From: an uncultured Actinomycetes bacterium
GTDB taxonomy: Bacteria > Actinomycetota > Thermoleophilia > Gaiellales > JAICJC01
Length of the DNA: 64,000 bases
Direction of reading: 5' to 3'
Assembly: GCA_963744065.1 (NCBI GenBank)
Contig: CAVUSN010000017.1
Span: 18,496-82,495, forward strand
Shown here: positions 859 through 50,646 of the stretch, piece after piece
Numbering within the stretch: the stretch's first letter is position 1
How the letters are laid out: every line of letters starts with the position of its first letter
Made by a program: the position numbers and the translations under genes
Notes under the pieces: model-generated
What the model saw: only the letters and a program-made list of their open reading frames with translations
What the model was told of the DNA's origin: nothing
Databases searched by the model: none

Positions 859-904
859 GCCACTTGGCGGTGTCAGCGACTGCCACTTGGCGGATCTACA
901 GTCC
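859..904 (+). repeat. two phased 23-bp units of the GCCACTTGG repeat family (locus A)
   Basis: gccacttggcggtgtcagcgact (859-881) and gccacttggcggatctacagtcc (882-904). The array ends 4 nt before the ATG at 909. Confidence 0.85.
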
Positions 905-10429: not shown

Positions 10430-10882
10430 ATGAAGCTCGCTGCAATCCTCGTGGTGGCCGGGGCGCTCGTGGTCGGCGCGTGGACGCTGGGTACGAGTTC
10501 ATCCAGCCATCGATCCACGCTGACCCCGACCGATAGACGGATTCAGGCGGTGGCGCTGCATATCGCGCGCGAGCTGGGCGACAGATCGCCGACCAGGATC
10601 GCTTGGGTGGCCAGCCGGCACCGGGCGGCCGAGCGGGTCGCCAGTGGCGACTGGGTGGATACGAACCAGCCCGTGTACCTGGTGGCGCTGCGCGGCCGGT
10701 TCATCGACCGCATGGCGTCGGTCCCGCCGGGCGGCAAGCCGCCCCGGGGGACGGTGCTGACCCTGGCCCTGGACCGCACGCATCTCAGCGTGCTGGATCT
10801 CGGGCTCTCGGGCCGCTGGCCCAGGCTGTCAGAGCTCGGGCCGGTGCATGCGATCACACAGGGGGCGGCCGCGACGCGCTGA
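10430..10882 (+). CDS. hypothetical secreted protein
   Basis: 150-aa ORF with an N-terminal signal/TM segment (MKLAAILVVAGALVVGAWTLG). No family recognised. Confidence 0.5.
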   Translation: MKLAAILVVAGALVVGAWTLGTSSSSHRSTLTPTDRRIQAVALHIARELGDRSPTRIAWVASRHRAAERVASGDWVDTNQPVYLVALRGRFIDRMASVPPGGKPPRGTVLTLALDRTHLSVLDLGLSGRWPRLSELGPVHAITQGAAATR

Positions 10883-11354
10883 CCCAGCGCCGCTGGGCGT
10901 GCCAGCGGTGGATCGTGCGCCGGCTGGGAGCGTGTGCCGAGCAGTTCTGGCCCGCCAGCAACTGGCCGACCGCGCCGACCCCGGCGTGCGGGCTCGCTCC
11001 ACCGGCGAACCGCCGCTCGAGTGCCGCGCGCAGCTCCGGCCAGGCGTAGCTGCCTGGCCGTCGCCGCGCAGGCTTCTCGCGCAGCGAGGCGATGTGGGCG
11101 GTCAGCGCCTTGCTGCGGCTGGCCGTCATGCAGCCATGGGCCGACCACAGCCGCTCCAGCGTGAGCACGAAGTCGCGCCCGCCGCGCATGGTCTGGAACT
11201 CGCGGCTCGCGTGCTCCGCGCACAGCCACACCTGGACGCCGTGGGTCAGCCGCAGCTGCTGTGTGCGCCCGCGGGTTCGGTCCACGCAGATCGCGCACAC
11301 CTGCTGCTTCGCCGGAACGCCCCGGGCCTTGTACAGCGTCGCCACGTATGCCAT
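10854..11354 (-). CDS. hypothetical Cys/His-containing protein (possible zinc-binding N-terminus)
   Basis: 166-aa ORF with VCAICVDRTRG..(19 aa)..WLCAEHAS. Its start lies 52 bp downstream (on its own strand) of repeat locus B. No family recognised. Confidence 0.45.
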   Translation of the reverse strand: MAYVATLYKARGVPAKQQVCAICVDRTRGRTQQLRLTHGVQVWLCAEHASREFQTMRGGRDFVLTLERLWSAHGCMTASRSKALTAHIASLREKPARRRPGSYAWPELRAALERRFAGGASPHAGVGAVGQLLAGQNCSAHAPSRRTIHRWHAQRRWVSASRPPPV

Positions 11355-11405: not shown

Positions 11406-11557
11406 GATCGTCACACAACACAAGTGGCACTACCGAGCACCGACAAGTGGCGCACGGTGCTCAGCACATCGCGCAAGTGGCACTCGGCGGCATCGACAAG
11501 TGGCGAGCGAGGCTCGTTGTACCGCCCAAGTGACACTCAGTCGCACTGACAAGTGGC
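11406..11557 (-). repeat. GCCACTTG repeat family, locus B: six cores arranged as three 53-bp (23+30) higher-order units
   Basis: The plus strand shows caagtggc at 11421, 11444, 11474, 11497, 11550 and caagtgac at 11527, with spacings 23/30/23/30/23. On the minus strand the 23-nt units read gccacttgtcagtgcgactgagt / gccacttgtcgatgccgccgagt / gccacttgtcggtgctcggtagt. Confidence 0.9.
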
Positions 11558-16120: not shown

Positions 16121-16345
16121 CCCTGCCCGCCCCGGGCGGCGGACGTCTGCGATCCGCCGCCCGGGCCGCGGGCTCTGCCTGACTCCCTAGGGTCAGGACA
16201 GCGGACCCGGAAAGCTCGGTCCGTGCGCCGCAGTCTCCTCCTCGAAGATTGAGCTGATGGTGGGTTTTCGGTAACGATCGTGTGACGATCTGCGCCGCCC
16301 GCCACCCGGACTTTCACGGTTCGCCGGTCGAGTAACCTCTCGCAA

Positions 16346-16774
16346 ATGCAGGTGGCAGTCCTGAACGGTGTCAACCTGAATATGCTCGGGCAGCGTGACC
16401 CCGACGTGTACGGCGACTTCACCCTGGACCAGCTCGAGACCCAGATCTATGCCTGGGCATCGGATCTGGCCATGGGCGTGCGCTGCACGCACACCAACTC
16501 CGAGGGCGAGTACGTGGACATGATCCACGAGGCCTGCGGCGACGCCGACGGCATGATCGTGAACCCCGGCGCCTGGACGCACTACAGCTACGCCATCCGC
16601 GACGCGCTGGAGATCTTTACGGGGCCGGTGATCGAGGTGCACCTGTCTGACATCGGGTCGCGGGAGCAGTGGCGCCGGCACTCGGTGATCGCCGACGTGG
16701 TCAGCCACCGCATCACCGGCAGCGGACCTGAGGGCTACCACGACGCCCTCAAGCGGCTGGTGGAGGCCGGGTGA
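16346..16774 (+). CDS. aroQ: type II 3-dehydroquinate dehydratase
   Basis: VLNGVNLNMLGQRDPDVYG..HTNSEGEYVD.IH..NPGAWTHYSYAIRDAL..PVIEVHLSD. Confidence 0.95.
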   Translation: MQVAVLNGVNLNMLGQRDPDVYGDFTLDQLETQIYAWASDLAMGVRCTHTNSEGEYVDMIHEACGDADGMIVNPGAWTHYSYAIRDALEIFTGPVIEVHLSDIGSREQWRRHSVIADVVSHRITGSGPEGYHDALKRLVEAG

Positions 16775-17850
16775 GCTACCCGGAGCGGATCCAGGGCGTG
16801 CGTGAGGCGCTGGAGGGGGCCGGCGCGGAGGCGCTGATCGTCTCCAATCTGGTCAACGTGCGCTACCTGACCGGGTTTGCCGGCTCAAACGCGGTGGTGA
16901 TCGTGGCGGGCGACGCCGCGACGTTCCTGACCGACTTCCGGTACGTCACCGCCAGCCAGCCGATCGGCGCCTTCATGCAGGTCGAGATGGCCGATCGGGA
17001 GGCGCTTCGGTATACGGCGGAGCACCTGTCCGAGCTGACCGGCGGGGCGGCCCGGGTGGGCTTCGAGGCCGCCCATCTGAGCGTTGCTGCACACGCCGTG
17101 CTGGCGGACGCCAACCCGGACGTCGAGCTCGTTTCCACCCGCGGTGCGGTCGAGCGCCTGCGGGTGATCAAGGAGCCCGCCGAGCAGGAGGCGGTGCGCC
17201 GCTCGGCTGCCCTGCTCGAGGGCGTCTATCGGACGCTGGCGGAGGAGGGCCTGGAGGGCCGCCGGGAGGTGGATGTGGCCTGGCGCGTGCGCGAGCTGCT
17301 GCACGAGGCGGGCGCGCAGGGGCTGTCGTTCGAGACCATCGTCGCCTCGCATGAGCGCGGCGCGCTGCCGCACGCGGTGCCGACCGAGGCGGTGATCGGC
17401 TCCGGCACGCTGGTCACCATCGATCTCGGCTGCATGCTGGACGGCTACGCATCGGACTGCACGCGCACATTTGCGGTCGGCCAGCCGGACTCCGAGCTGC
17501 GGGCGATCTACGACGTGTGCCTGGAGGCGCAGCTGGCGGCCATGGCGGCCATCCGCCCGGGCCTCGAGGGAGCCGACGCCGACGCGGTCGCCCGCGACAT
17601 CATCTCCGGCGCCGGCTACGGCGATCGCTTCGGGCATGGGCTGGGCCACGGGGTCGGGCTGGACATCCATGAGGAGCCGCGGCTCTCGGCGTCCTCGTCC
17701 GCAACCCTGGAGACCGGCATGGTCGTCACAGTGGAGCCGGGCATCTACCTGCCCGACCACGGTGGGGTGCGGATCGAGGACCTGGTGATCGTGACGGCCG
17801 ACGGCTGCGAGCGCCTGACCATGTACCCCAAAGAGCTCACAATCCTGTGA
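16771..17850 (+). CDS. Xaa-Pro aminopeptidase (M24B family)
   Basis: Creatinase-like N-domain followed by ..VTIDLGCMLDGYASDCTRTF..GHGLGHGVGLDIHE..VVTVEPGIY..GGVRIED. Conserved position between aroQ and efp. Confidence 0.85.
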   Translation: MSYPERIQGVREALEGAGAEALIVSNLVNVRYLTGFAGSNAVVIVAGDAATFLTDFRYVTASQPIGAFMQVEMADREALRYTAEHLSELTGGAARVGFEAAHLSVAAHAVLADANPDVELVSTRGAVERLRVIKEPAEQEAVRRSAALLEGVYRTLAEEGLEGRREVDVAWRVRELLHEAGAQGLSFETIVASHERGALPHAVPTEAVIGSGTLVTIDLGCMLDGYASDCTRTFAVGQPDSELRAIYDVCLEAQLAAMAAIRPGLEGADADAVARDIISGAGYGDRFGHGLGHGVGLDIHEEPRLSASSSATLETGMVVTVEPGIYLPDHGGVRIEDLVIVTADGCERLTMYPKELTIL

Positions 17851-24919: not shown

Positions 24920-26582
24920 ATGCTGCAACCGGCTTCTAATCGAGAACCTGGCCCTGATCGAGCGGGCGGAGCTGGAGCTAGGCCCCGGCCTGAACGTGTT
25001 CACGGGCGAGACCGGGGCGGGCAAGACGATGCTGGCCCAGGCCATCGGGCTGCTGGGCGGATCGCAGCCGGGAGCGGCGCTGGTCGGGCCGCACGCGGTC
25101 GAGGCCTACGTGGAGGCGGAGCTGGAGCTGCCGGATGGCCTGCTTGACGATCCGGCGCTGGCGGCCCTGGCGGCGCTTCGGCCGGACGGCGAGGACACGC
25201 TGGTGGTCGCCCGCCGGCTCTTCTCCAATGGCCGCACGCGCGCCCTGGTGTGGGGTCGAAGCTGCGCCCGGGCCGATCTGGAGACGCTGGCCGAGCGGCT
25301 GCTCGAGGTGTCCTCCCAGCACGAGGCGCGGCGGCTGTCGCACCCGGCCCGCCAGCTGGCCCTGCTGGACGCTCACGCCGGCGCCGAGCCGGCGGTGGCC
25401 GACATGGGGGCAGCCTGGCGCTCCCTGCGCCAGGCCCAGTCCGCGGCAGCGGATGCCCGCGGGCAGGCGGCGGATGCGGCCCGCCACCGGGGCGAGCTGG
25501 AGGAGCTGGTCGAGCGGGTCGATGCGGCGGCCGTCGAACCCGGCGAGCGGGCGGCGCTGGAGGCCGAACGCGACCGCCTGCGGCATCTCGACGAGCTGAT
25601 GGCGGCGGCCGGTGGTGCGGCACAGCTCCTGAATCCCGACGAGGGCGAGGGCGCGCTGGCGCTCTCCGGCCGGGCGGCCGAGCTGGTGGCCGATGGCGCG
25701 CGTTTCGAGGCCGGGTTGGCCGATGTGGCGGCCGAGCTGCGCGACGTCAGCGTGCGCCTGGAGGAGGCGGCCCGCGAGCTTCGCGGCTATGTGAACGGGC
25801 TGGAGGCCGATCCCGGCCGGCTGGAGCAGGTGGAGGCCAGGCTGGCCATGTTCGCCGAGCTGGAGCGGCGCTTCGGCGGCCCGCTGGATGGGCTTGTGGA
25901 GCGTGCCGACGACGCCCGCCGGGCGCTCGAGCTGCTGGACGCCACCGGCTCGGCGCTGGAGCAGCTGGAGGCACGGGTGGCCGAGGCCCAGGCCCGCGCC
26001 CAGTCCTGCGCGCAGGCGTTGTCTGCGGCGCGCCGGCGGGCGGCCCGCCCGTTCGCCCGCGCGGTCGAGCGCCAGCTGACCGAGCTGGGCATGCAGGGCG
26101 CGCGCTTCGCGGTGCGGCTGGAGGCGGCGGAGCTGGGCCCGCGCGGGGCGGACCGGGCCGAACTGGACGTGTCCGCCAATCCCGGGCTCGATCTGGCGCC
26201 TGTTGCCACCACCGCATCCGGCGGCGAGCTGTCGCGGATCGCGCTTGCCATCCGCATCGCCGCTCGGGCCGGCGGCGGCCCGTCCACCCTGCTGCTGGAC
26301 GAGGTGGATGCCGGCGTGGGTGGGCGCACGGCCAGGGTGGTGGGCGAGAAGCTGCGCGAGCTGGCGGGCGGCGCGCAGGTGCTGTGCATCACCCACCTCC
26401 CGCAGATCGCCAGCCTGGCCGACGTCCACTTCCGGGTCGAGAAGACCGACCAGGAGCCGGTCACCACCACCGTCGAGCGGCTGGACGGTGACGCGGTGAC
26501 CGAGGAGCTGGCTCGCATGCTGGGAGCCGACGCGTCCGACGAGCTGGCCCGCCAGCACGCCGAGTCGCTGCGCGCCTCCTAG
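24920..26582 (+). CDS. recN: DNA repair protein RecN (one frameshift in codons 4-5)
   Basis: ATG 24920 gives MLQP. One base later the frame reads LLIENLALIERAELELGPGLNVFTGETGAGKTML.. through to ..GGELSRIALAIR..LLLDEVDAGVGG. Removing one C from 'aaccgg' (24927-24932) restores MLQRLLIENL. Confidence 0.9.
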
Positions 26583-26611
26583 CCGCCGCAGGCCTCTGTT
26601 AGCCTCTCGGC

Positions 26612-26839
26612 GTGGACGACGGGGTGAAGGCGGATGCAGCGCTCACGGCTGACGAGCGGGACCTGCTCGACCATATCGGCGCGACCTTCCGCGCGTTCGA
26701 CCAGTTGGAGGCCTACCACCCGGCCGACCGCGAGGAGTTCGCCTTCCACGTCCACGCCCTCGGCCGGATCGTGATGTCGCGTCCGGTCATCCGCGCCCAT
26801 CCCAGCCGCCTGCGGCCGGGCGGCGGGGAGTGGTCGTAG
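26612..26839 (+). CDS. hypothetical protein (ends at an in-frame TAG; the same frame stays open downstream)
   Basis: 75-codon ORF with high GC3 (..DERDLLDHIGATFRAFDQLEAYHPADREEFAFHVHALGRIVMSRPVIRAHP..). GTG start. No family recognised. Confidence 0.4.
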   Translation: MDDGVKADAALTADERDLLDHIGATFRAFDQLEAYHPADREEFAFHVHALGRIVMSRPVIRAHPSRLRPGGGEWS

Positions 26840-27162
26840 CGGCTGTTTGGGTGTAAAGCGCGCAACGATCGCCGGCCTCGCGGCTGGCGGTCTGGCTCGA
26901 CGATCGGGTGGGGCACCGGGTACTGGGGTAACCGTGGGCCGGGCCCGCTGTGCCAGGCCTGCCGGTGTCGCACGTCGTGGCTGTACGCCGGCGGCTACGA
27001 CCCGGAGCTCGACCCTGAGCCGCCGACGGACGACGACTTCATGGGGCATCACCCGGTTGATCTGTGTTACTGGTGTCGGCTCGACAGCGGTGGGGCGATC
27101 ACGACCGAGGGCGGCGAGTTGGAAGCTGCGCTCGCTTGTCGGTCATCTGCGCGAGCGGGGCC

Positions 27163-27254
27163 GCCACTTGGCCGTGCATGCGAGTGCCACTTGACGGTGC
27201 GCATGAGTGCCACTTGGCGGCGGACACGAGTGCCACTTGGCCGTGCCGGCGAGA
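27163..27254 (+). repeat. GCCACTTGG repeat family, locus C: four perfectly phased 23-bp tandem units
   Basis: gccacttggccgtgcatgcgagt / gccacttgacggtgcgcatgagt / gccacttggcggcggacacgagt / gccacttggccgtgccggcgaga, starting at 27163, 27186, 27209 and 27232. The array ends 142 nt upstream of the pyrG start. Confidence 0.95.
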
Positions 27255-27396
27255 ACCAGCCGCCCGCCGCACCCTCCCGAACCCTGCTCTTTGCGAGATC
27301 TTCACCTTCGAGCGAGCCGCAACGGGGTCGGTCCAGCGGCCGCGGCCAGTATCATACGGACCCCGTGAGCTCGTCCTTCCAGGAAAGGCGGATCGC

Positions 27397-29064
<1,668 letters not shown>

Positions 29065-29083
29065 CCGCCGGGGCCGACCGCTC

Positions 29084-30602
29084 ATGCACGCCGACACCGC
29101 GTGGGCCGAGCTCGAGCAGCGCGTCCGCGAGCTGACCGAGCTGGGCCGCGTGTCCACGCTCCTGGGCTGGGATCAGCAGACGCTGATGCCGCCGGCCGGC
29201 GCTCCCGGGCGGGCCCGCGCGGCCGCCACCATCCGCGTCCTGCGCCACCAGCGGCTGGTCGACCCGCGGCTGGGCGAGCTGGTCGGCGAACTCGGTGCAA
29301 ACGGCCTCGGCCCGACCCAGGCCGCCATGTTGCGGATCGTGGCCCGAAACCACCGCCGCGCCGCCCGCCTTCCCGACGACCTGGTGCGCCGGCTGTCGGT
29401 CGCCGGCACGCTCGGACACGACGCCTGGCAGCGGGCTCGTCGCGACCGCGATTTCGTTGCCTTCCGCCCGCACCTGGAGGAGATGGTCGTGCTCAAGCGC
29501 GAGCAGGCCGACCTGCTGGGCCACGACGGCGAGCGCTACGACGCGCTGTTGGAAGGCTACGAGCCGGACATGCGCACCGCCCGCCTGGTGCCGCTGTTCG
29601 CCGAGCTGCGCGAGCAGATCCGAGGTCTGCTCGAGGCCATCGCCGGCTCGCAGGAAGGCCCGCCGCCGCTGCCCCACCTGGACATCTCCGACGAGGCCCA
29701 GCTGCGGTTCTCCCAGCGGCTCCTGGCCGACATCGGCTTCGACCTGCGGGCCGGCCGGCTGGACTGCTCGGCCCACCCGTTCTCGAGCATGGTCGGGCTG
29801 CGCGACGTGCGCGTGACCACCCGCCTGTATCCGCACGACCCCTTCCCGGCGGTCTTCTCGACCATCCATGAAGCCGGCCACGGCATGTACGACCAGGGCT
29901 TCGACGCCGACTACGAGGGACCTGCCGCTGGCCGAGGCCCCGTCGCTGGGGGCGCACGAGTCGCAGTCGCGGCTGTGGGAGAACATCGTCGGCCGCAGCC
30001 GGCCGTTCTGGCAGCGCTACACGCCGATCCTGGGCGAGCTGGTCGGCTCCGACCTGGGCGGCTGGGAGGCCGAGCAGGTGTACCGGCATGTGAACCGGGT
30101 GGCGCCGTCGCTGATCCGGGTCGACTCCGACGAGGTCACCTACAACCTGCACATCCTGATCCGCTTCGAGCTGGAACTGGCGCTGCTGCGCGGCGAGCTG
30201 GAGGTGGCCGAGCTGCCCGAGGCCTGGAACGAGGCCTACCGCCGCCAACTGGGGATCCAGCCGCCCCACGACGGCGACGGCGTGCTGCAGGACGTCCACT
30301 GGTCGGAGGGGTCGTTCGGCTACTTCCCGACATACACGTTGGGCAACCTGTACTCCGCCATGCTGTGGAACCGGCTGCGCTCCGACCTTCCCGACGTCGA
30401 GGACGACATCGCCGCCGGCCGGTTCACGCCCATCCTGGACTGGCTGCGCGAGAAGGTGCACAAGCCTGGCCACCTGCTGGAGTGCGAGCCGCTGATGCGC
30501 GAGGTGACCGGGTCGGGCCTGACCACCGGTCCCTTCGTGGACTACCTGTGGGCCAAGATGGGCCCGCTGTACGGCATCAGCCGGCCACCAGCCGTCCGCT
30601 AG
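29084..30602 (+). CDS. M32 carboxypeptidase (Taq-like), one frameshift ~29915
   Basis: ..LLGWDQQTLMP..YDALLEGYEPD..STIHEAGHGMYDQG (HExxH), then ..LGAHESQSRLWEN..IRVDSDEVTYNLHI..LQDVHWS.G.FGYFPTYTLGN. The sequence passes from ORF 29012.. to ORF 29868..30602. Confidence 0.85.
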
Positions 30603-30613
30603 GCTGGCGCCAC

Positions 30614-31726
30614 GTGGACGGCGACGACGTCACCCAACTCTTCCTGGAGCTTGCCTCCATCCCCAGCCCGCCTGGCCGTGAGCGGGCGGTGGCAGACCGC
30701 GTGGGGGGGTTCCTGGACGGACTCGGCCTGGCCCACGACGAGGACGACGCCGGCGCCGCCATCGGCTCCGAGATCGGCAACCTGTACTGCCACATCCCGG
30801 CCACCGCCGAGGGTCAGCCGATCTTCCTGAACGCCCATCTGGACACGGTGGTGCCCACCGCCGCCATCCAGCCGGAGGTGCGAAACGGGGTGGTGGTGAA
30901 CCGCAACGACACCATCCTGGGTGCCGACAACAAGGCGGCGGTGGCGGCCATGCTGGCCGCAGCCGCCACCATCGTCCGCGAGCAGCGCGCACACGCCGGA
31001 CTGGAGCTCGTGTTCACGCCCATGGAGGAGGTGGGCCTGTGCGGGGCCAAGGGCTTCGACGTCACCCGCCTGCATGCCGGCCACGGCTACTGCTACGACC
31101 ACGCCGCCCCGATCGGCAACGTGGTGCTGGCTGCACCCACCCAGAAGAGCCTGTCGCTGGTCTTCATCGGCCGTGCGGCCCACTCCGGGATCGCCGCCGA
31201 GGACGGCCGAAACGCCGTCCAGGCCGCCGCCAAGGCGATCGCCGAGATGCGCCTTGGCCGGATCGACGAGCTGACGACGGCCAACGTCGGCCTGATCTCC
31301 GGCGGCATCGCCGGCAACATCGTGCCGCCCCGCTGCACGGTCAGCGCCGAGGCCCGCAGCCGCGATCCTGAGGCGGCCAGGGCACTGGCCCAGGAGATGC
31401 TGGACGCCGCCATGCACGCCGCCAACCTGTGCGAGTGCTCGCTGGAGTCGACCATCGTGTCGGAGTACGAGGGCTACCGGTTCACGCGCGCCCACCCGGC
31501 CGTGCGGATGGCGGCCGGCGCGCTCGAGGCGAGCGGCTATCCGGTCACCTATATCGAGTCCGGTGGTGGGGCCGACGCCAACGCGTTCAACGCGGCCGGC
31601 ATGACCTGCGTCAACCTGTGCAACGGGATGGCCGAGATCCACACCTCCGATGAGCACATCGCAGTGGCCGATCTGGAGGGTATGACCAGGGTCACGCTGG
31701 CGCTGGTGGAGGCCGCGCTCGCATAG
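30614..31726 (+). CDS. M20-family metallopeptidase (PepT/tripeptidase-like)
   Basis: ..LASIPSPPGRE..LNAHLDTVVP..LGADNKAAVAAML..FTPMEEVGLCGAK..HSGI.AEDGRNA..GGGADAN. GTG 30614 lies in the same frame as the upstream read-through ORF 29012..31726. Confidence 0.8.
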   Translation: MDGDDVTQLFLELASIPSPPGRERAVADRVGGFLDGLGLAHDEDDAGAAIGSEIGNLYCHIPATAEGQPIFLNAHLDTVVPTAAIQPEVRNGVVVNRNDTILGADNKAAVAAMLAAAATIVREQRAHAGLELVFTPMEEVGLCGAKGFDVTRLHAGHGYCYDHAAPIGNVVLAAPTQKSLSLVFIGRAAHSGIAAEDGRNAVQAAAKAIAEMRLGRIDELTTANVGLISGGIAGNIVPPRCTVSAEARSRDPEAARALAQEMLDAAMHAANLCECSLESTIVSEYEGYRFTRAHPAVRMAAGALEASGYPVTYIESGGGADANAFNAAGMTCVNLCNGMAEIHTSDEHIAVADLEGMTRVTLALVEAALA

Positions 31727-31784
31727 TCAGCCCCGGCGGCGTGGGCGTAGAATCGCGCCGCCAGCATTCCGACCGGGGGTGTTC

Positions 31785-32909
31785 ATGAGGATCGGCGTCG
31801 CCAAGGAGATCAAGACCGACGAGTACCGGGTGGCGCTGACCACCGCCGGGGTGTTGGAGTTGACCCACCACGGCCACCAGGTGCTGGTCGAGAGCGGCGC
31901 CGGCGAGGGCAGCTCGATGTCAGACGACGACTACCGGGCCGCCGGCGCGACCATCGTCGACACTGACGCCGCCTGGGGCGACGCGGATCTGGTGCTGAAG
32001 GTCAAGGAGCCGCTGGACGGCGAGTGGCAGCGGCTGTCCAAGGGTCAGGTGCTCTTCACCTACCTGCACCTGGCGGCGGCCCCGGAGCTGACCCAGGGCC
32101 TGTGCGACAGCGGCGCCGTGTGTATCGCCTACGAGACGGTGGAGACGCCCGATCGCCGGTTGCCGCTGCTGGCGCCGATGAGCGAGGTGGCGGGCCGGCT
32201 GTCGGCGCAGGTCGGCGCGTACTACCTGTTGAAGCCGTTCGGCGGCCGCGGCCGGCTGATGGGCGGCGTGCCGGGTGTGCTGCCGGCCAAGGTGCTGGTG
32301 CTGGGCGGCGGCATCGTGGGTTACAACGCGGCCCTGATCGCCCAGGGTATGCAGGCCGACGTCACGGTGTTCGAGCGCTCGGTCGACCGTATGCGGGAGT
32401 TGGACGTGAGTCTGGGCCGGACGGTGCTCCTGCAGATGTCGAGTCGGCAGGCGATCGCCGAGTCGCTGCCGGCGGCCGACCTGGTGATCGGCGGGGTGCT
32501 GATCCCGGGCGCCCGCGCGCCGCGCCTGGTGACCCGCGAGATGCTTGCCACGATGAAGCCGGGGTCGGTGCTGGTGGATGTGGCGATCGACCAGGGCGGC
32601 TGCTTCGAGACCTCCCACCCGACCACCCACACCGATCCTGTGTACATGGTCGACAACGTCCTTCACTACTGCGTGGCCAACATGCCGGGAGCGGTGCCGA
32701 TCAGCTCCACCTGGGGCCTCACCAATGTCACCCTGCCGTATGTGGAGGCGATCGCCGAGCGCGGCCTGGAAGGGGCGCTGGCGGCCGACCCGGCGCTGGC
32801 CAAGGGCGTCAACGTGGCGGCCGGCGCGGTCACCTATCAGCAGGTGGCCGAGGCGGTGGGGCTGGAGTACGTGCCGCTGGAGCAGGCGCTCTCGCTGCGC
32901 GCGGCGTAG
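31785..32909 (+). CDS. ald: alanine dehydrogenase
   Basis: MRIGVAKEIKTDEYRVALTTAGV..KVKEP..LFTYLHLAA..VLVLGGGIVGYNAA..VLVDVAIDQGGC.ETS.PTTH. GTG 31779 is an alternative start. Confidence 0.95.
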   Translation: MRIGVAKEIKTDEYRVALTTAGVLELTHHGHQVLVESGAGEGSSMSDDDYRAAGATIVDTDAAWGDADLVLKVKEPLDGEWQRLSKGQVLFTYLHLAAAPELTQGLCDSGAVCIAYETVETPDRRLPLLAPMSEVAGRLSAQVGAYYLLKPFGGRGRLMGGVPGVLPAKVLVLGGGIVGYNAALIAQGMQADVTVFERSVDRMRELDVSLGRTVLLQMSSRQAIAESLPAADLVIGGVLIPGARAPRLVTREMLATMKPGSVLVDVAIDQGGCFETSHPTTHTDPVYMVDNVLHYCVANMPGAVPISSTWGLTNVTLPYVEAIAERGLEGALAADPALAKGVNVAAGAVTYQQVAEAVGLEYVPLEQALSLRAA

Positions 32910-32933
32910 TCGCGTCCCGCTCAACCGGCGGAG

Positions 32934-33086
32934 ATGCGCAACCAAGCCGGGAAAGCCGCACCGGACGTGCGCGCGGCGATCACGGCGAACGCCCGCTACC
33001 TGGCATGGATCAGCGCCGCCTACTGGGTGGTGCCGTACGACCAGAACGGCCTTCCCGATGTGTTCTGGCGGGGCCCGCTGTACTGA
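32934..33086 (+). CDS. hypothetical 50-aa protein (below the ORF-track cutoff)
   Basis: ATG 32934 is preceded by ggcggag. The translation is MRNQAGKAAPDVRAAITANARYLAWISAAYWVVPYDQNGLPDVFWRGPLY* with consistently high GC3. No family recognised. Confidence 0.4.
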   Translation: MRNQAGKAAPDVRAAITANARYLAWISAAYWVVPYDQNGLPDVFWRGPLY

Positions 33087-33131
33087 TCCGGCCAGGCAGG
33101 GATCGGGCCGCGGTCGGCGAATGCTGCGGCC

Positions 33132-34016
33132 ATGCGCGCATATGAGGAAAAGCTTGCCGACTTTCTGACCCACCTCCAGCTCGAGCGCGGCGCCTCGCCG
33201 CACACGGTTGAGGCCTATCGCCGCGACCTGATCGACCTGGGTGACTTCGTGGAGCATGAGGACCCCGACACGATCGCCGTGTCGGTGCTGGACGACTATG
33301 GACTGGCCCTGCGTGACCGCGGTCTGTCGCCGGCCACCGTCCGCCGCCGGCTGGCGGCGGTGCGGGCATTTCTGAAGCACCGGGCCCGCGAGGGCGCGCG
33401 CAACGCGGCTCCCGGCCGCGGGATGCCGTTGCCCCGGCTGGGCCGTCAGCTGCCCGAGCCGCTGACGAAGGGCGAGGCTGAGCGGATCGTCACCATGCCC
33501 GATGCGACCCCCCGCGGACTGCGCGACCGGGCCATGCTGGAGCTTCTGTACGGCGCGGGTCTCCGGGTCAGCGAGCTGGTCTCGCTGCGCGTCTCCGACG
33601 TCGACCTGCGCGACGGCGTCGTCCGCTGCATGGGCAAGGGCGCCAAGCAGCGGCTGGTGCCGATGGGAAAGAGCGCCACCGAGGCGGCCCGTGTCTACCT
33701 GCAGCGTGGCCGTCCCTACCTAGGCCGGCTGCAGCGCGGCGACATCCTGTTTCTGAACCACCGCGGGCAGGGCATCACCCGCCAGGCGGTGTTCCAGCTC
33801 GTGCGCGAGCACGCTCGCCGGGCCGGGGTGGCCAAGGAGGTCACGCCGCACACGCTGCGCCACTCGTTCGCCACCCACCTGATCCAGGGCGGCGCCGACC
33901 TGCGCAGCGTGCAGGAGATGCTCGGCCACGCCAGCATCGAGACCACGCAGGTGTACACGCACGTCTCGCCCGACCATGTGCGGCGCGAGTACTTCAAGGC
34001 CCACCCCAGGGCGTAG
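33132..34016 (+). CDS. xerD: site-specific tyrosine recombinase XerD/XerC
   Basis: ..FLTHLQLERGASPHTVEAYRRDL..RDRAMLELLYGAGLRVSELVSL..GKG.KQR.VP..HTLRHSFATHL..GADLR.VQEMLGHASI.TTQVYTHV. Confidence 0.9.
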   Translation: MRAYEEKLADFLTHLQLERGASPHTVEAYRRDLIDLGDFVEHEDPDTIAVSVLDDYGLALRDRGLSPATVRRRLAAVRAFLKHRAREGARNAAPGRGMPLPRLGRQLPEPLTKGEAERIVTMPDATPRGLRDRAMLELLYGAGLRVSELVSLRVSDVDLRDGVVRCMGKGAKQRLVPMGKSATEAARVYLQRGRPYLGRLQRGDILFLNHRGQGITRQAVFQLVREHARRAGVAKEVTPHTLRHSFATHLIQGGADLRSVQEMLGHASIETTQVYTHVSPDHVRREYFKAHPRA

Positions 34017-34853
34017 ATGGTCGGCGTGGGGTCCGGCGTCGAGGTGCGGGCGCTGCGGCTGGACGATCTGGACTGGCTGGCGCAGCTGCACAACGACGCG
34101 TTCGCAGACCACGTCGTGCCGGCCAGCCTGGACGCCGCCGCGCTGGGCGCGTATCTGGAGGAGACGGATGTGTCGCCCGAGTTGTCGCGGGTGGCGTTCG
34201 TGCACGGACAGCCGGCCAGCTTCTGCCTGGCGGCGATGCGTGGCGAGCGGGCCAGCGTCCGGGGTGAGGGCACCGGCCGGCGGTTCCGGCGCCGCGGGCT
34301 GGGCGGTCTGGTGCTGGATGAGACGCTTGCGGCGATGACCGACGCCGGAGCCGGCGAGGTCGTGCTGGAGTCGGTTGCCAGCAACATTGCTGCACTCGAG
34401 CTCTACCGCGGGCGCGGGTTTCGCAAGCTGCGCCGGCTGCTGGGCTGGCGGCTGGGCCGCGCGGGCGACGGCAGCGAACTGGCGGAGATCCCGGTAGACG
34501 ACGCCGTTGATCGGTTGGAGGCCTGGGGCTGGCCGGATCCGCCGTGGCAGCTGGCGCCGCAGACGCTGCGCCGGCTGCGCGCCTTTGCCCTCGGCGAGGC
34601 GGCGGTGGCGCTGGGAAAGCCGCGCCACGAACGGTTCTGGCTGTACGGCTTCGGCGTCGACCCAGCTGTGCGCCGGCGGGGGGTGGGCACGTCGCTTCTG
34701 CGTGCGCTGCCGGGGCGGGTCGGCGTGCCGGCGCTGGTGCCTGAGACCTGGCGGGGCGCCGTCGCCTTCCTGGATTCGGCCGGCGGAGAGCGCGAGGGCT
34801 ACTCGCAGTGGGAGCTGGTGCGGCCACTGCCAGTTGGCGGTGCTCGCGAGTGA
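34017..34853 (+). CDS. GNAT-family acetyltransferase (two-lobed, ~278 aa)
   Basis: VRALRLDDLDWLAQLHNDAF..GTGRRFRRRGLGGLVL..A...YRGRGF, with a second RRRGVGTSLL motif in the C-terminal half. The last codons and the TGA overlap repeat locus D. Confidence 0.7.
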   Translation: MVGVGSGVEVRALRLDDLDWLAQLHNDAFADHVVPASLDAAALGAYLEETDVSPELSRVAFVHGQPASFCLAAMRGERASVRGEGTGRRFRRRGLGGLVLDETLAAMTDAGAGEVVLESVASNIAALELYRGRGFRKLRRLLGWRLGRAGDGSELAEIPVDDAVDRLEAWGWPDPPWQLAPQTLRRLRAFALGEAAVALGKPRHERFWLYGFGVDPAVRRRGVGTSLLRALPGRVGVPALVPETWRGAVAFLDSAGGEREGYSQWELVRPLPVGGARE

Positions 34854-34874
34854 CACTTGGCGGCCGCCGCCCAG
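34829..34874 (+). repeat. GCCACTTGG repeat family, locus D: two phased 23-bp units
   Basis: gccagttggcggtgctcgcgagt (34829-34851) and gacacttggcggccgccgcccag (34852-34874). Unit 1 ends with the family's cgagt signature. Confidence 0.75.
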
Positions 34875-34982
34875 GACACCCTCTGGCGGTATCAGCCTTC
34901 GTGACTCCGCGCCCACGGCGTCCGCCACGGCACCCCCCAGGCCGTCGGCCTCCCATGACTCCGATGATCTAGATTGCCGCGA

Positions 34983-36146
34983 ATGCCACGGGCGTGCGTG
35001 ATCGTGCTGGATGCGGTGGGGGCGGGCGATCTGCCCGATGCCGCGGCGTTCGGCTCAGAAGGGTCGAACACCCTCGCCCACGTGGCCGAGGCGGTCGGCG
35101 GGCTCCAGGTGCCGGCTATGCAGGCGCTCGGCCTGGGCAACATCCTTCCCCTGCGGGGCTGCCCGCCGCGTGCCGATGCGCCGTCTGTCTACGGCCGGCT
35201 GGCCGAGCGCAGCCTGGGCATGGACACCACCACCGGCCACTGGGAGATGATGGGGATCATCACCGAGCGGCCGTTTCCGACCTACCCCAACGGCTTTCCG
35301 CAGGAGCTTCTGGACGAGTTCGCGCGCCAGACCGGGCGCGGGGTGATCGGCAACTACGCCGCCTCCGGCACCGAGATCATCAAGCAGCTCGGCGAACAGC
35401 ACCAGCGCACCGGCGACTGGATCGTCTACACCTCCGCCGACAGCGTCTTTCAGATCGCCGCCCACGAGCAGACGATCCCGCTGGAGGAACTGTACGAGGC
35501 CTGCCGCACGGCCCGCCGGCTGCTGGTCGGCGAGCACGCCGTCGGCCGCGTCATCGCCCGCCCCTTCATCGGCGAGCCTGGCGCCTACGCGCGCACCCCG
35601 CACCGGCACGACTTCTCGCTGGAGCCGCCCCGGCCCAACCACCTGCAGCGGGTGCGCGAAGCCGGCATCACGGTGCACGGGGTGGGCAAGATCTGGGACA
35701 TCTTCGCCGGCTGCGACATCGACACCTCAGCCCCCACCGAATCCAACGCAGAGGGCATCGCCCGCACCACCGACCTGATGCGCAAGTTGCCCGACCACAG
35801 TTTCGTCTTCGTCAACCTGGTCGAGACCGACCAGACGTGGGGCCACCGCAACGACCCGCGCGGTTTCGCCGACGCCCTGGAGGAGTTCGACGCCGGCCTG
35901 CCCGACCTGCTGGCCGCGCACCGCCATGGCGACCTGCTGATACTCACCTCCGACCACGGCTGCGACCCAACCACGCCCTCCACCGACCACTCCCGCGAGC
36001 ACGCCATGCTGGTCGCGCACACTCCCGGCGGGCCGCTGCTCGGCCGCCGCCACGACGGCGACACCTTCGCCGACGTGGGCGCCACCGTCGCCCGCTGGCT
36101 GACCGGCGCCCATGACCCGGCGCTTGCGGGGACGCCTGTTGTCTAG
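34983..36146 (+). CDS. deoB: phosphopentomutase
   Basis: IVLDAVGAGDLPDAA.FG.EGSNTL.H..TTTGHWEMMG..TSADSVFQIAAHE..NLVETDQ.WGHRNDP..LILTSDHGCDPT. Confidence 0.9.
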   Translation: MPRACVIVLDAVGAGDLPDAAAFGSEGSNTLAHVAEAVGGLQVPAMQALGLGNILPLRGCPPRADAPSVYGRLAERSLGMDTTTGHWEMMGIITERPFPTYPNGFPQELLDEFARQTGRGVIGNYAASGTEIIKQLGEQHQRTGDWIVYTSADSVFQIAAHEQTIPLEELYEACRTARRLLVGEHAVGRVIARPFIGEPGAYARTPHRHDFSLEPPRPNHLQRVREAGITVHGVGKIWDIFAGCDIDTSAPTESNAEGIARTTDLMRKLPDHSFVFVNLVETDQTWGHRNDPRGFADALEEFDAGLPDLLAAHRHGDLLILTSDHGCDPTTPSTDHSREHAMLVAHTPGGPLLGRRHDGDTFADVGATVARWLTGAHDPALAGTPVV

Positions 36147-36162
36147 GAAGAGCGAGCTGCGC

Positions 36163-37389
36163 GTGGTCGACCTGATCGCGCGAAAGCGGGACGGGGGCGA
36201 GCTGTCGGCCGCCGAACTGCGGACGGTGATCTCGCCGGACACGCCCGACTACCAACTCTCGGCTTTCCTGATGGCCGTCGTCCTGCGCGGCATGACCGAC
36301 GCCGAGACGGCCGACCTGCTGCAGGCCATGGTCGACTCGGGCGAGCGGCTCGATCTGTCCGCGGTCGGCCGGCCGGTGGCCGACAAGCACTCCACCGGCG
36401 GTGTCGGCGATAAGACCACGCTGGTGGTGGCGCCGCTGGTGGCCGCCTGCGGGATGCCGATGGCCAAGCTGTCGGGCCGCGGCCTGGGCCACACCGGCGG
36501 CACCCTCGACAAGCTGGAGTCGATCCCGGGCTTTCGGGTCGGCCTGTCGGCGGCCGAGCTGGTCGCCCAGGTGTGCAAGGTGGGGGTGGCCGTGGCCGGC
36601 CAGACCGAGGCTCTGGTGCCGGCCGACCGGCGCATGTACGCCCTGCGCGACGCCACCGCCACCGTGCCCTCGATCCCGCTCATCGCCACATCGATCATGT
36701 CCAAGAAGGTGGCCGCCGGCGCGAACCGGCTGGTGCTCGATGTGAAGGTCGGCGAGGGCGCCTTCATGCCCAACCTGGCCTCGGCCCGCGAGCTCGCGCA
36801 GGCCATGCGCCGGCTGGGCGAGCTGGCCGGCCTGCCCACGACCTGCATGCTGACCGGCATGGCCGAGCCACTGGGCTGCGCGGTGGGAAACGCGCTCGAG
36901 GTGGTCGAGGCGGTCGCCGCCCTGCAGGGCCACGGCCCCGCCGACCTGACCGAGCTGTGCCTGGCCGCCGCGGGCCTGCTGGTCGGCGAGCGGGCAGCGG
37001 CCGAGCGGGTGCTGGCCTCGGGTGAGGCCTATGCCTGCTTCCGGCGCTGGATTGCCGCCCAGGGCGGCGATCCCGACGCCGAGCTGCCGCAGGCGCCGAT
37101 CGTCGTTCCGGTTCCGGCTCCCCGCCCCGGTGTGGTGGCGGAGTGCCACGCCCTCGGCATCGGCAACGCCGCCATGCGGCTGGGCGCCGGCCGGGCCCGC
37201 AAGGAGGACGCCGTCGACCACGCGGTGGGCGTCGTGGTGCACGCCAAGGCGGGGGACCGGGTGGAGGCCGGCCAGCCGCTGGCCACCGTGCATGCTCGCC
37301 ACGACCCCGACCTGGATGCCGTCGCAGCCTGCTTTGAGATCGGCGATGCGGAGGTCGAGCGGCCGCGCGTCGTGCTCGAGGTCGTCTAG
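36163..37389 (+). CDS. pdp: pyrimidine-nucleoside (thymidine) phosphorylase
   Basis: VVDLIARKRDGGELS..LSAFLMAV..GM...E...L..AM..SG..DKHSTGGVGDKTTL..GRGLGHTGGTLDKLESIPG..IPLIATSIMSKK. GTG 36163 follows ggaagag. The ORF track starts at 36112, which would overlap deoB. Confidence 0.9.
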   Translation: MVDLIARKRDGGELSAAELRTVISPDTPDYQLSAFLMAVVLRGMTDAETADLLQAMVDSGERLDLSAVGRPVADKHSTGGVGDKTTLVVAPLVAACGMPMAKLSGRGLGHTGGTLDKLESIPGFRVGLSAAELVAQVCKVGVAVAGQTEALVPADRRMYALRDATATVPSIPLIATSIMSKKVAAGANRLVLDVKVGEGAFMPNLASARELAQAMRRLGELAGLPTTCMLTGMAEPLGCAVGNALEVVEAVAALQGHGPADLTELCLAAAGLLVGERAAAERVLASGEAYACFRRWIAAQGGDPDAELPQAPIVVPVPAPRPGVVAECHALGIGNAAMRLGAGRARKEDAVDHAVGVVVHAKAGDRVEAGQPLATVHARHDPDLDAVAACFEIGDAEVERPRVVLEVV

Positions 37390-37396
37390 CTACGTC

Positions 37397-38269
37397 ATGC
37401 CCGAGCTGCCTGAGGTCGAGACCGTCCGCCGCGGTTTGGAGCCGCGGCTGGTGGGCCGGACGTTTGAGCGGGTGCAGATCCTGGACGGCCGGCTGACCGC
37501 GCCCGACGATCCGATGGCGGTGGGGTTGGAGTTGGACGGCGAACGGGTGACCCAGGTCGGGCGGCGCGGCAAGTACCTGCTGTTCGGGTTCGAGTCGGGC
37601 CGCACGCTGGTCGTGCACCTGCGCATGACCGGCTGGTTTCACCACACAGTTCGTCCCGAATCTGCCACGGGGTCCGTCACCCAACCTGGTACCGTGGAGG
37701 CCGCCGTTACGCATGTGCGCGCGGTTTTTGACATGGATGACGGCGGCCGGCTGGTGTACGACGATCAGCGCCGCTTCGGCACCTTCCGGCTGATCGAGCC
37801 GGGCGGGCTGGAGGAGTACCTGCGGCGGCGGGCCGGCCCCGAGCCGCTCGGCCCCGACTGGACGCCGCGCACACTCAGGGCGGCGCTGCGCGGCCGCCGG
37901 GCGCCGATCAAGGCGCTCATGCTCGACCAGTTGGTGGCCGCCGGCGTGGGCAACATCTACGCCGACGAGGCGCTGTGGGAGGCGCGCATCCACCCCCTGC
38001 GGGCGGGCGAGGCGGTGACCGCGGCGCAGGCCCGCCGGCTGCACGACGCCACGGTTGCGGTGCTGCAGCGCGGGATCGCCGCCCAGGGTGCGTCGATCCG
38101 CGACTACCGGGGCGTGGACGGCCAATCCGGGTCGATGCAGGAGCGGTTCAATGCCTATGATCGGGACGGCCAGCCGTGCCCACGCTGCGGGACGCTCATC
38201 GTCAAGATCCGCGTTGCCCAGCGCGGCACGCACTTCTGCCCGCGCTGCACCCGCCGCCCGCGAACGTGA
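37397..38269 (+). CDS. mutM: formamidopyrimidine-DNA glycosylase
   Basis: MPELPEVETVRRGL..GKYLLF..LVVHLRMTG..GVGNIYADEALW...IHP..C.RCG..I......R.THFCP.C (zinc finger). Confidence 0.95.
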   Translation: MPELPEVETVRRGLEPRLVGRTFERVQILDGRLTAPDDPMAVGLELDGERVTQVGRRGKYLLFGFESGRTLVVHLRMTGWFHHTVRPESATGSVTQPGTVEAAVTHVRAVFDMDDGGRLVYDDQRRFGTFRLIEPGGLEEYLRRRAGPEPLGPDWTPRTLRAALRGRRAPIKALMLDQLVAAGVGNIYADEALWEARIHPLRAGEAVTAAQARRLHDATVAVLQRGIAAQGASIRDYRGVDGQSGSMQERFNAYDRDGQPCPRCGTLIVKIRVAQRGTHFCPRCTRRPRT

Positions 38270-38323
38270 GCGCCCGCACACTCGGCCTCATGCTCACGCG
38301 TCCGGGCACCGACAGAGAGTCCC

Positions 38324-39034
38324 ATGACGCTGCGGCGTATGCGCTGGCTGTGCCTGCCCGCCCTGCTGGTGGCGGTCGCCGCCGGCTGCGGCGGCTCGTC
38401 GTCCTCCGGCGCCAAGAGCGGCCCCAAGCCGATCTCCAGCGCCTCCGCCGACTGGAAGGTGTACGCGCCCAAAGGCGGCGGCTACAAGATCCAGATCCAC
38501 TCCGGCTGGGTGACGATCGACGCCGCCAGCCTGGCCGCGTCCAACGGCGTGAAGGCGCTGGCAGCAAGGAATCCTGCCCTGTCGGGCGCCCTCTCCAGCT
38601 TCGCCCAGATGGCCAAGCAGCCGGGCGTGCTGGTCGCCTTCGACCGCACCAGCGCCGGCCGCGGCGTGACCAGCCGGACGGGCTTTGCCCCCAACATCAT
38701 CGTCCGCCGCATCCCGCTCGACACGGCCGAGTCCGACTCGGCGCTGCTCGACACGGTGCTGAACCAGGGCAGGATCAACGCCAGCGGCATCCCCACCGCA
38801 ATCGGCTCGCCGACCGTCTCCCGGCTGACCATCGCCGGGCACCCCGGCGGCGTGGTCAGCTACCGGGTGAGCGAGAACACGGCCGTCGGCACCGCCAAGA
38901 TCACCGAGAGCGACTACGTGACCGTGCGGGACGGCATCGCCTACACGGTCTACTGCTCGTCGATCATCACGGACATGGCGCGCATCCAGCCCGACTGCGA
39001 CCACGCGTTGTCCAGCTTGACCTTCACCGACTGA
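38324..39034 (+). CDS. hypothetical lipoprotein
   Basis: Signal peptide with lipobox LLVAVAAGCGGSSSS. 236 aa. No family recognised. Confidence 0.6.
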   Translation: MTLRRMRWLCLPALLVAVAAGCGGSSSSGAKSGPKPISSASADWKVYAPKGGGYKIQIHSGWVTIDAASLAASNGVKALAARNPALSGALSSFAQMAKQPGVLVAFDRTSAGRGVTSRTGFAPNIIVRRIPLDTAESDSALLDTVLNQGRINASGIPTAIGSPTVSRLTIAGHPGGVVSYRVSENTAVGTAKITESDYVTVRDGIAYTVYCSSIITDMARIQPDCDHALSSLTFTD

Positions 39035-39058
39035 CCGACCGCCGCCTAAGATCGGGAC

Positions 39059-39532
39059 GTGTCCGAGCTGCATCCCACGACCGCCCGCCTGGCCGCCCGC
39101 CTGGCCGAGCTCGGCCTCCAGGTCGAGGTGCGCCAGCTGCCCGACTCGACCCGCACCGCCAGCGAGGCTGCGGCCGCCTGCGGCTGCCAGCTGGGCCAGA
39201 TCGTCAAATCTCTGGTCTTCAGCGGCCCAGACGGGCCGCTGCTGGTGCTGTGCGCGGGTGACCGCCGAGTGGACACGGGTGCGCTGGGCGAGGGCGTGGC
39301 CATGATGCCGCCGGCCGAGGTGCGAGCGGTCACCGGGTTCGCCATCGGCGGCGTCCCCCCGCTGGGCCACGACCGGCCGCTGGAGACCGTGATCGACGCA
39401 TCGCTCGGCCGCTTCGAGACCGTGTGGTGTGCGGCCGGCACGCCGTCCAGCGTGTTCGAGGTGGCCACCGCCGAGCTGATCCGGGCGACCGCCGGCGATG
39501 TCCGCGAAGTCGCCGCCCAGAGCACCACCTAG
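39059..39532 (+). CDS. YbaK/EbsC-family aminoacyl-tRNA editing (deacylase) domain protein
   Basis: ..TRTASEAAAACGCQLGQIVKSLVF......LVLCAGDRRVD......VTGFAIGGVPPLGH. is the YbaK/ProX-type pattern. GTG start. Confidence 0.7.
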   Translation: MSELHPTTARLAARLAELGLQVEVRQLPDSTRTASEAAAACGCQLGQIVKSLVFSGPDGPLLVLCAGDRRVDTGALGEGVAMMPPAEVRAVTGFAIGGVPPLGHDRPLETVIDASLGRFETVWCAAGTPSSVFEVATAELIRATAGDVREVAAQSTT

Positions 39533-39541
39533 ACTGACCGC

Positions 39542-40273: not shown

Positions 40274-40312
40274 GTCGAGCCCGGCGGCCGTCCTGATAGC
40301 TTGGGCGCGCCG

Positions 40313-41160
<848 letters not shown>

Positions 41161-49725: not shown

Positions 49726-49777
49726 GACGACGACGCTTCGAGCGACTCGGATCCGCTGAAGCGCGGTCCATACTTGG

Positions 49778-50584: not shown

Positions 50585-50600
50585 GCCAACCCTGACACTG

Positions 50601-50646
50601 GCCACTTGGCCGTTGCAGCGGTGGCCAGTTGGCCGTTCTGACGATG
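50601..50646 (+). repeat. GCCACTTGG repeat family, locus E: two phased 23-bp units
   Basis: gccacttggccgttgcagcggtg (50601-50623) and gccagttggccgttctgacgatg (50624-50646), located between two convergent gene ends. Confidence 0.8.

Follow-up and report, generated by a model that had tools for sequence, protein, structure and literature searches.

Phased 23-bp direct repeats in non-coding DNA of Gaiellales and their recurrent position upstream of a gene for a small basic protein

Short direct repeats that are recognised by small proteins are described from several bacterial systems. The iterons of plasmids such as pPS10, R6K and RK2 are direct repeats of 17–23 bp in strict head-to-tail phase, and their period is close to two turns of the helix. 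Partition repressors (omega of pSM19035, ParR of R1, ParG of TP228) bind cooperatively to plasmid-borne repeats of 7–11 bp and act together with a ParA or ParM partner. REP sequences are short non-coding repeats arranged as inverted doublets, and the RAYT gene that belongs to them is recognisable by the densest flanking cluster of repeats. At the right end of Tn7 four 22-bp TnsB sites abut each other, and its left end contains three spaced sites. Gaiellales are among the most abundant actinobacteria in soil and are almost entirely uncultured. To our knowledge, nothing is known about gene regulation or genome dynamics in this group.

The array described here is part of a 64,000-nt stretch of DNA from an uncultured member of the Gaiellales (the window; G+C content 71.8%). 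It is located in the variable spacer between recN and the downstream gene, which was assigned by Pfam as the CTP synthase gene pyrG, and ends 142 nt before the pyrG start (GTG 27397) and 95 nt before a −10-like box (Table 1). An earlier reading of the letters (the sequence-only reading) had described four head-to-tail units of 23 bp at this site. Direct inspection confirmed them, and so did TRF, which reported 27163–27246 with period 23, 3.7 copies and a score of 105 as the top tandem repeat of the window. Each unit is composed of GCCACTTG[G/A]C, about 9 nt and a GAGT that is directly abutted by the core of the next unit. Allowing up to two mismatches, GAGTGCCACTTGG has 9 matches in the window versus 1.7 expected, and none of 100 shuffled sequences reached 9. 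The conserved core and the GAGT at the 3′ end were described correctly, but the middle of the unit, which had been called variable, is partly conserved in the consensus of the whole family. The idea that a period of two helical turns places the units on the same face of the DNA does not strictly hold either, since 23 bp correspond to about 2.2 turns and successive units are about 70 degrees apart. A peptide repeat of a translated ORF as cause of the periodicity was excluded: 23 is not divisible by 3, ORFs that cross the array have a GC3 of 0.69 compared to 0.91–0.95 in real genes, and no gene was called across the array in the contig of a close relative (L010).

For a scan of the window we used a PWM that was trained only on genomes other than that of the window. 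Scores above 10 bits were obtained exclusively at five loci, which corresponds to about one locus per 13 kb, while the background did not exceed 9.4 bits and no lone high-scoring unit was found (Table 1). The proposed recurrence of the unit at four further loci was thus reproduced, but a uniform 23-bp phase does not apply to 11406–11557: in this cluster units are 23 bp apart within a pair and 30 bp between pairs, resulting in a higher-order repeat of 53 bp. The loci had all been regarded as intergenic. This is correct except for the pair at 34829, where the stop codon of a GNAT ORF (TGA, 34851–34853) falls within the second unit. As had also been noted, four of the five loci lie upstream of a gene start and are oriented towards it, the exception being the pair at 50601. 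This pair points at no gene start and lies 44 nt ahead of the 3′ end of a gene on the minus strand (50677–51546). The nearest clearly coding gene upstream of it ends at 49725, and the intervening ORFs have no coding signal. These about 900 bp (49725–50600, best ORF with GC3 of 0.74–0.77), which directly precede the pair, may represent the remains of a gene or some other kind of non-coding DNA.

Table 1. Location of repeat units and of associated features (positions refer to the window).
Feature	Position	Strand	Remarks
Unit pair	859..896	+	units at 859 and 882; ends about 12 nt before ATG 909 of NifU-like/MnmA frame
166-aa protein gene	10854..11354	-	downstream of the three-pair cluster; candidate cognate binder
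Six units in three pairs	11406..11557	-	units at 11557/11534, 11504/11481 and 11451/11428; densest cluster in the window; 64 nt from ATG 11354
23-bp array	27163..27254	+	four contiguous units, starts 27163, 27186, 27209 and 27232; direct reading, TRF and PWM
-10-like box of pyrG (TATCAT)	27350..27355	+	also in relatives without the array (TATGAT/TATCAT)
Unit pair	34829..34866	+	units at 34829 and 34852; left end of an about 140-bp insertion (34815-34954); about 120-130 nt from start of deoB-like gene (34984/34998)
Unit pair	50601..50638	+	units at 50601 and 50624; closes an about 950-bp stretch without coding signal
Pairs upstream of the 166-aa family gene			window 3; L041 4-5; L008 3; L042, L052 and L053 1-2, degenerate

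The repeats belong to a family with members in other genomes. From 69 units of about 12 genomes we derived the consensus gcGAGT-GCCACTTGGC-[a/c/g]Gt[t/g]c. These units hardly differ in the 10-bp core, the asymmetric CT centre included, while their flanks are lineage-specific, with AGTTC in some MAGs and GGTGC in the window. Across genomes, 35 of 49 pairs of neighbouring units are spaced by 23 bp, even though the spacer sequences differ, which supports the view of the family as dispersed, non-coding and held to a strict register of 23 bp. Arrays consist of 2 to 7 units, and the arrays L005 and L027, which represent orthologous loci, differ in unit number. Most arrays are co-oriented with the gene upstream of the array. 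The units of L001, L002 and L016/L021 run antisense to the genes on both sides, and three loci (50601 of the window, L008 1036 and L020) lie between convergent gene ends or face the 3′ end of a gene.

When 185,579 species genomes were scanned for two cores phased at 23 bp, high-G+C matches were obtained only in four Gaiellales MAG contigs and one MAG designated "uncultured Actinomycetes", and a scan of metagenomes for phased cores revealed about eight further high-G+C contigs. All named PyrG relatives were Gaiellales MAGs. No phased pair was present in viral contigs, and blastn of the array against plasmids and phages gave either nothing or only chance matches of 31–36 nt in coding genes of Streptomyces. 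The Rfam comparison that had been proposed as a check returned no match for the whole window at the gathering threshold, and none for 26500–27450 even at E ≤ 1. In a full-text literature search for GCCACTTGGC only primers in unrelated papers were retrieved, and nothing relevant was found in the literature on intergenic repeats of Gaiella. A CRISPR array was also rejected, because the units abut and just about 4–8 semi-variable bases lie between the conserved parts. The repeats therefore represent a real, previously undescribed family that is restricted to the Gaiellales lineage and is defined by its non-coding location, its repeat anatomy and its strict phase, and the earlier statement that the unit is unlike described elements applies to all collections searched.

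In an unbiased comparison, the 250-nt flanks of 21 arrays were matched all against all. Matches between genomes occurred at three places only: the L005/L027 loci, the deoB-like gene, and a gene for a 166-aa protein, which directly follows the three pairs at 11406–11557 in the window and has a matching gene after three pairs in L008. Phased pairs were present upstream of the family gene in six of six lineages examined (Table 1). The gene has unrelated chromosomal neighbourhoods in every genome examined, and the repeats flank it on one side only. With an independent PWM derived from other loci, the best pair within 250 nt upstream of the gene ranked second to fourth of 25,000–41,000 positions (L041, L042, L052, L053). 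The top pairs of the whole locus are found upstream of the family gene in L041 and L042, while the upstream pair is degenerate in L052 and L053 and is third to fourth in the locus. The aligned upstream footprint comprises a unit A (C.CTTGTCG), a unit B 23 bp further on, the sequence CCCACAC, and a CAnACT box 8–9 nt before the start. The position of this box suggests that the family gene gives rise to a leaderless transcript. Flanking bases co-vary within a genome, with AGTT flanks at the gene and at the dispersed arrays of L008 and GGTGC at both in the window. A genome that is about 98% identical to the window in DNA carries a 78%-identical copy of the gene more than 1 Mb away from pyrG, at a locus different from that in the window, and only the gene and 641 bp upstream of it align between the two copies.

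The units at 11428–11557 of the window and at L041 9857–9927 read CACTTGTCRGTGC. Units upstream of the 166-aa gene contain TTGTCRGTG, the 9-mer of the PafBC/RecA-NDp element of mycobacteria. The complete element is TTGTCRGTG-N8-TAnnnT. The TAnnnT 8 bases downstream of TTGTCRGTG is absent, and we judged the match to be coincidental. HAIR/HspR motifs and the GntR-type motif GT-N3-AC were considered as well, and were not accepted as identity of the unit.

The 166-aa protein is strongly basic (pI 11.6, 27 R+K versus 8 D+E). In the alignment of the family, C20, C23, C45 and H48 are invariant (CxxC...CxxH), as is the sequence PGSYAWP, and the C-terminus contains R-T-x-x-R-W-H-x-x-R-R-W. In the AlphaFold models (pLDDT 78 and 73) the cysteines are at a small beta hairpin, after which come helices, with a three-helix bundle at the C-terminus. 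The best structural match of this bundle in the PDB was the HTH domain of Tc3 transposase (1tc3_C), with a non-significant E value of 5 and a TM score of 0.64 on the target. We found 687 close homologues, all of them unnamed, and about 333 clusters of the family at 50% identity. No sequence match was found in Pfam, NCBIfam, PHROG or PDB, and the family is absent from viral contigs. By its basic character, its CxxC...CxxH motif and the predicted three-helix bundle the protein looks like a binder of nucleic acids, and the invariant residues could equally indicate an enzyme.

Binding of a protein to duplex DNA is the most plausible mode of action of the units. We tentatively propose, with not quite even confidence, that the units are the binding sites of a small lineage-specific protein, most likely the 166-aa protein with its putative zinc ribbon and three helices. 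Each protomer or small oligomer would read the GCCACTTGGC core together with the GAGT just 5′ of it, and neighbouring protomers would be placed head to tail in a fixed register of 23 bp, corresponding to about 2.2 turns. A pair would be the minimal element, and longer arrays could hold longer rows of the protein. The upstream pairs are located just before the presumed leaderless-type promoter of the family gene, so that the protein might exert feedback on its own level. All other copies, including the four units at pyrG, would have been spread by copying rather than by point mutation and would be subject to rapid gain and loss, and the pyrG array, with the protein bound to it, would at most modulate transcription nearby or the architecture of the DNA. 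We infer the binding by the 166-aa protein, its cooperativity, the autoregulation and any effect on neighbouring genes, and the link between protein and repeat is drawn from the gene neighbourhood in the six lineages.

Several observations speak for binding sites of this kind. The presence of pairs before the family gene in all six lineages, at unrelated places of the chromosome, supports them, as do the high ranks of the upstream pairs in the independent PWM and the co-varying flanks at the gene and the dispersed arrays. The core is maintained while predicted RNA folds are not better than those of shuffled sequences (see below), and the 23-bp spacing is maintained despite differing spacer sequences, which indicates that the spacing itself is constrained. 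We considered the 166-aa protein as the putative cognate partner by analogy to the matching of REP and RAYT, because the densest repeat cluster lies beside its gene. Other observations argue against the proposal: the protein does not significantly resemble any DNA-binding family, either in sequence or in fold, the pairs of L052 and L053 are degenerate, and the position of the units relative to transcription starts is inconsistent. At loci that face gene 3′ ends or lie between convergent ends no promoter is available that could be regulated. Moreover, a factor of the regulon type should keep its sites at orthologous genes, which is not the case at pyrG.

This became apparent from a comparison with relatives, in all of which the gene order efp ... 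nusB ... nadK-recN-[spacer]-pyrG-peptidases is kept. L010, with a PyrG that is 99% identical, has the identical four-unit array before pyrG. L036 (PyrG 94% identical) has a unit pair elsewhere in the recN-pyrG spacer. In L011, L012, L037, L038 and L039 (PyrG 87–92% identical) no unit was found upstream of pyrG or elsewhere in the syntenic 15–21 kb that were examined, nor was any other 23-bp array present there. The array thus lacks positional conservation at pyrG, an outcome that the sequence-only reading had named as one that would refute its interpretation.

The recN-pyrG spacer (26582–27397 of the window) is a hotspot of gene insertion. It is empty and only 98 bp long in L012. The spacer of L011 contains a GNAT gene on the minus strand, and that of L038 a GNAT gene together with a gene for a 1158-aa cyclase/AAA protein. 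L037 has a histidine-phosphatase gene at this place, L036 a polysaccharide deacetylase gene, and the window a 71-aa ORF. This ORF (26612–26839, GC3 0.92) stops at a TAG, and its frame remains open for about 107 further codons up to the array, with a GC3 of 0.79. The stretch after the TAG encodes CxxC...CxxC (…PLCQACRC…DLCYWCRLD…), and 26612–27160 may represent a decaying or stop-interrupted small zinc-ribbon gene.

The alternative that survives best is a selfish or neutral short mobile repeat with a lifestyle like that of REP or MITE sequences and without function for the host, which we regard as possible but rather unlikely. A pair of about 40 bp would be copied into non-coding DNA, undergo local tandem duplication and decay, and its nearness to the 166-aa gene would reflect a role of this gene in mobilisation or mere coincidence. 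The distribution at pyrG, with an identical array in L010 and none in the relatives at 87–92%, points to fast turnover, and we infer that arrays are gained and lost quickly. Arrays are located in variable hotspots such as the recN-pyrG spacer, the genes of which differ in every relative, and their unit number is variable even between the orthologous arrays L005 and L027. The 166-aa gene itself is not syntenic, as seen from its 78%-identical copies at different loci of genomes that are about 98% identical. A single unit pair carries about 40–50 bits in the PWM, which makes a repeated origin by point mutation not credible and requires that copies were made by copying.

One such event can be followed at the locus 34829. 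In L011 the GNAT gene ends with ...QYEMTASMI*, followed 25 nt later by the start of the deoB-like gene. The GNAT frame of the window reaches ...QWE and is then followed by 140 bp of foreign sequence, which opens with the unit pair and provides a new stop codon in the second unit. The former 3′ end of the GNAT gene, ATGACTCCGATGATCTAG (MTPMI*), is still intact at 34955–34972. As judged from this comparison, a single insertion event brought about 140 bp of repeat-bearing DNA into the GNAT gene near its 3′ end and cut off the last codons.

Against a purely selfish repeat, we found neither terminal inverted repeats nor a target-site duplication nor extended flanks shared among loci. The flanks of different loci have only orthologous genes in common and no longer repeat, and a longer mobile element around the arrays was rejected on this basis. 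A stable hairpin is also lacking, and the 166-aa protein has no recognisable transposase or recombinase domain. That the core, the 23-bp register and the pairs before the family gene are strictly conserved across distant lineages points to selection. In part this alternative overlaps with the binding-site proposal, since copy-and-paste and protein binding can be compatible.

Two further observations were made in the sequences compared. A second, unrelated family of intergenic repeats has the palindrome GGTGCCAGGCACC, with 4 matches versus 0.4 expected (window 47591–47622 and 43119–43131, L012 about 17163–17245, L042 10651–10690). In the window, a perfect palindrome of 32 nt, GGCCGGTGCCAGGCAC|GTGCCTGGCACCGGCC, begins 3 nt past a stop codon. 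L012 has two AT-flanked copies of GGTGCCAGGCACC in a MITE-like insert at the same GNAT 3′-end site that holds the 23-bp pair in the window. The about 98%-identical relative L010 contains about 1.1 kb of extra sequence (15576–16689) relative to 32968–32973 of the window, overlapping a gene with faint PD40 matches.

A more far-reaching form of the binding-site proposal, which we consider speculative and unlikely, is that the non-HUH, zinc-ribbon/HTH-like 166-aa protein copies its own 23-bp sites, or uses hundreds of arrays as a lineage-specific scaffold that organises the chromosome. If this were true, it would be a partnership of repeat and protein of a kind previously unknown in bacteria, and copying of the sites would constitute a new mechanism of mobilisation, with a lifestyle analogous to that of REP and RAYT.

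We consider it improbable that the arrays are operators or promoters of a conserved regulon that includes pyrG, the deoB-deoA nucleoside genes, nifU-mnmA and others, although four of the five loci of the window point at the start of a downstream gene, and pyrG, the deoB-like gene and the neighbouring gene for pyrimidine-nucleoside phosphorylase share the theme of nucleotide metabolism. Moreover, the deoB-like Metalloenzyme gene has an array in front of it in the unrelated MAG contig L001 as well as in the window. These two arrays (L001 1500–1578, window 34829–34866) are on opposite strands in distantly related genomes, and the upstream neighbour is a gene with a class II tRNA-synthetase domain in L001 and the GNAT gene in the window. 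The gene may have acquired its array independently in the two genomes, or the arrangement may hint at a function. Despite synteny, L011, L012, L037 and L038 have no array before pyrG or the deoB-like gene. The pyrG-proximal 60 nt or so, including the −10-like box, are conserved in all relatives, also in those without the array, which shows the promoter of pyrG to be distinct from the repeats. The centres of the units are located at about −22/−45 relative to the likely transcription start of the nifU-like gene, at −70/−93 for the 166-aa gene and at −125 to −195 for pyrG. This distance is different at every locus, and a regulatory geometry shared by the loci is not apparent. Convergent gene ends enclose some loci, the units of others are antisense to both neighbours, and no sigma-70-like promoter was predicted in or beside the array.

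The comparative data thus largely refute a conserved regulon for pyrG. The earlier proposal of a promoter, operator or 5′-leader element of pyrG is not supported, and its extension to the other downstream genes fares no better, considering the relatives with an array-less deoB-like gene, the differing distances to starts and the pair at 50601, which faces a gene 3′ end. For pyrG the outcome is a negative one: by comparison of the relatives, the array is not part of the conserved control region of this gene.

Transcripts of the array could act as structured RNA, e.g., as a 5′ leader, a riboswitch-like element, a terminator or a stabiliser composed of repeated small hairpins. In favour of such a function are the small palindrome of the core (GCCA-CT-TGGC) and the co-orientation of most arrays with the upstream gene, and it is possible to draw a pair as an imperfect hairpin. 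The predicted folds of the array RNA were not better than those of shuffled sequences on either strand (z = −0.66, −0.64 and −1.46), and since the sequence is maintained all the same, the conservation is one of sequence and not of structure. The asymmetric CT centre is conserved and not compensated, units are antisense to transcription at several loci, and Rfam had no match even at the relaxed threshold. We regard a structured RNA as very improbable, and a structure of single-stranded DNA was rejected on the same z-scores. Neither an intrinsic terminator nor a terminator-like T tract was predicted in or beside the array. A sigma-54 promoter on the reverse strand was rejected as well: the best unit (TGGCAC-TCGCA-TGCA) is one base short of TGGCAC-N5-TTGC, and this applies to only one of the four units. 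Actinobacteria are not known to carry rpoN.

Ends of a Tn7/Mu-type transposon, with 27163–27254 as four-site end and 11406–11557 as three-site inverted end, would match the geometry of Tn7, with two inverted clusters that point outward, but are refuted by synteny and therefore extremely improbable: the 15.7 kb in between are conserved housekeeping genes (aroC... efp, nusB, nadK, recN), relatives, in which the part from efp to recN was sampled, contain this part but no arrays, a transposase gene and TGT/ACA termini are lacking, and the three other loci are isolated pairs.

This study provides an information-rich DNA motif, a strict spacing rule and a candidate cognate protein from an uncharacterised family. 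If the link between protein and repeat is true, it would reveal a new DNA-binding fold together with a new site architecture, and a tractable example of how arrays of binding sites spread and decay in a bacterial chromosome.

Among the described systems, transposase-derived binders such as IS1 InsA, which combines a zinc finger with an HTH, and the Tc1/mariner proteins including Tc3A share small zinc-binding and HTH-like modules with the 166-aa protein. The best structural match, a weak one, is to a domain of Tc3A, and the presumed sites are in both cases dispersed copies of one short sequence. Different from these systems, the Gaiellales repeats have no inverted terminal repeats and no catalytic transposase was found nearby, and the match itself is non-significant. 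Partition repressors have in common with our predictions that a small protein binds cooperatively to short direct repeats, and that arrays of variable copy number are present upstream of the own gene and at few other sites. The Gaiellales repeats are chromosomal and of 23 bp rather than plasmid-borne and of 7–11 bp, no partition ATPase adjoins the 166-aa family gene, and the fold is different.

REP sequences share with the Gaiellales units the presence at many non-coding sites per genome, a fast turnover and lineage-specific variants, as well as a cognate gene that stands out by the densest flanking cluster. However, the Gaiellales units are direct repeats in fixed phase and not inverted doublets, they form no stable hairpin, and their 5′ tetranucleotide is GAGT instead of GTAG. 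Membership in the REP/RAYT family was rejected, because profile searches revealed no HUH/Y1 domain in the 166-aa protein and no HUH motif was seen by inspection.

With their period of 23 bp and four contiguous copies, the units at pyrG fall within the range of iterons (phased tandem direct repeats of 17–23 bp). In both systems monomers of a single protein presumably occupy the contiguous copies, the presumed binder is encoded beside a repeat cluster, and autoregulation is implied. Unlike iterons, the Gaiellales repeats do not mark one origin but are dispersed over the chromosome, with five loci within 64 kb of housekeeping synteny, and they are evolutionarily labile. No AT-rich unwinding element or DnaA boxes were noticed by eye beside the arrays, and the 166-aa protein has no Rep_3/winged-helix signature, as it has no Pfam match. 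An origin from a plasmid or phage with a rep gene was rejected in view of the chromosomal synteny and the lack of matches to plasmids, phages and viral contigs. By analogy to these systems, the family would best be filed as phased protein-binding direct repeats of the iteron or operator-array type that have a REP-like dispersed lifestyle.
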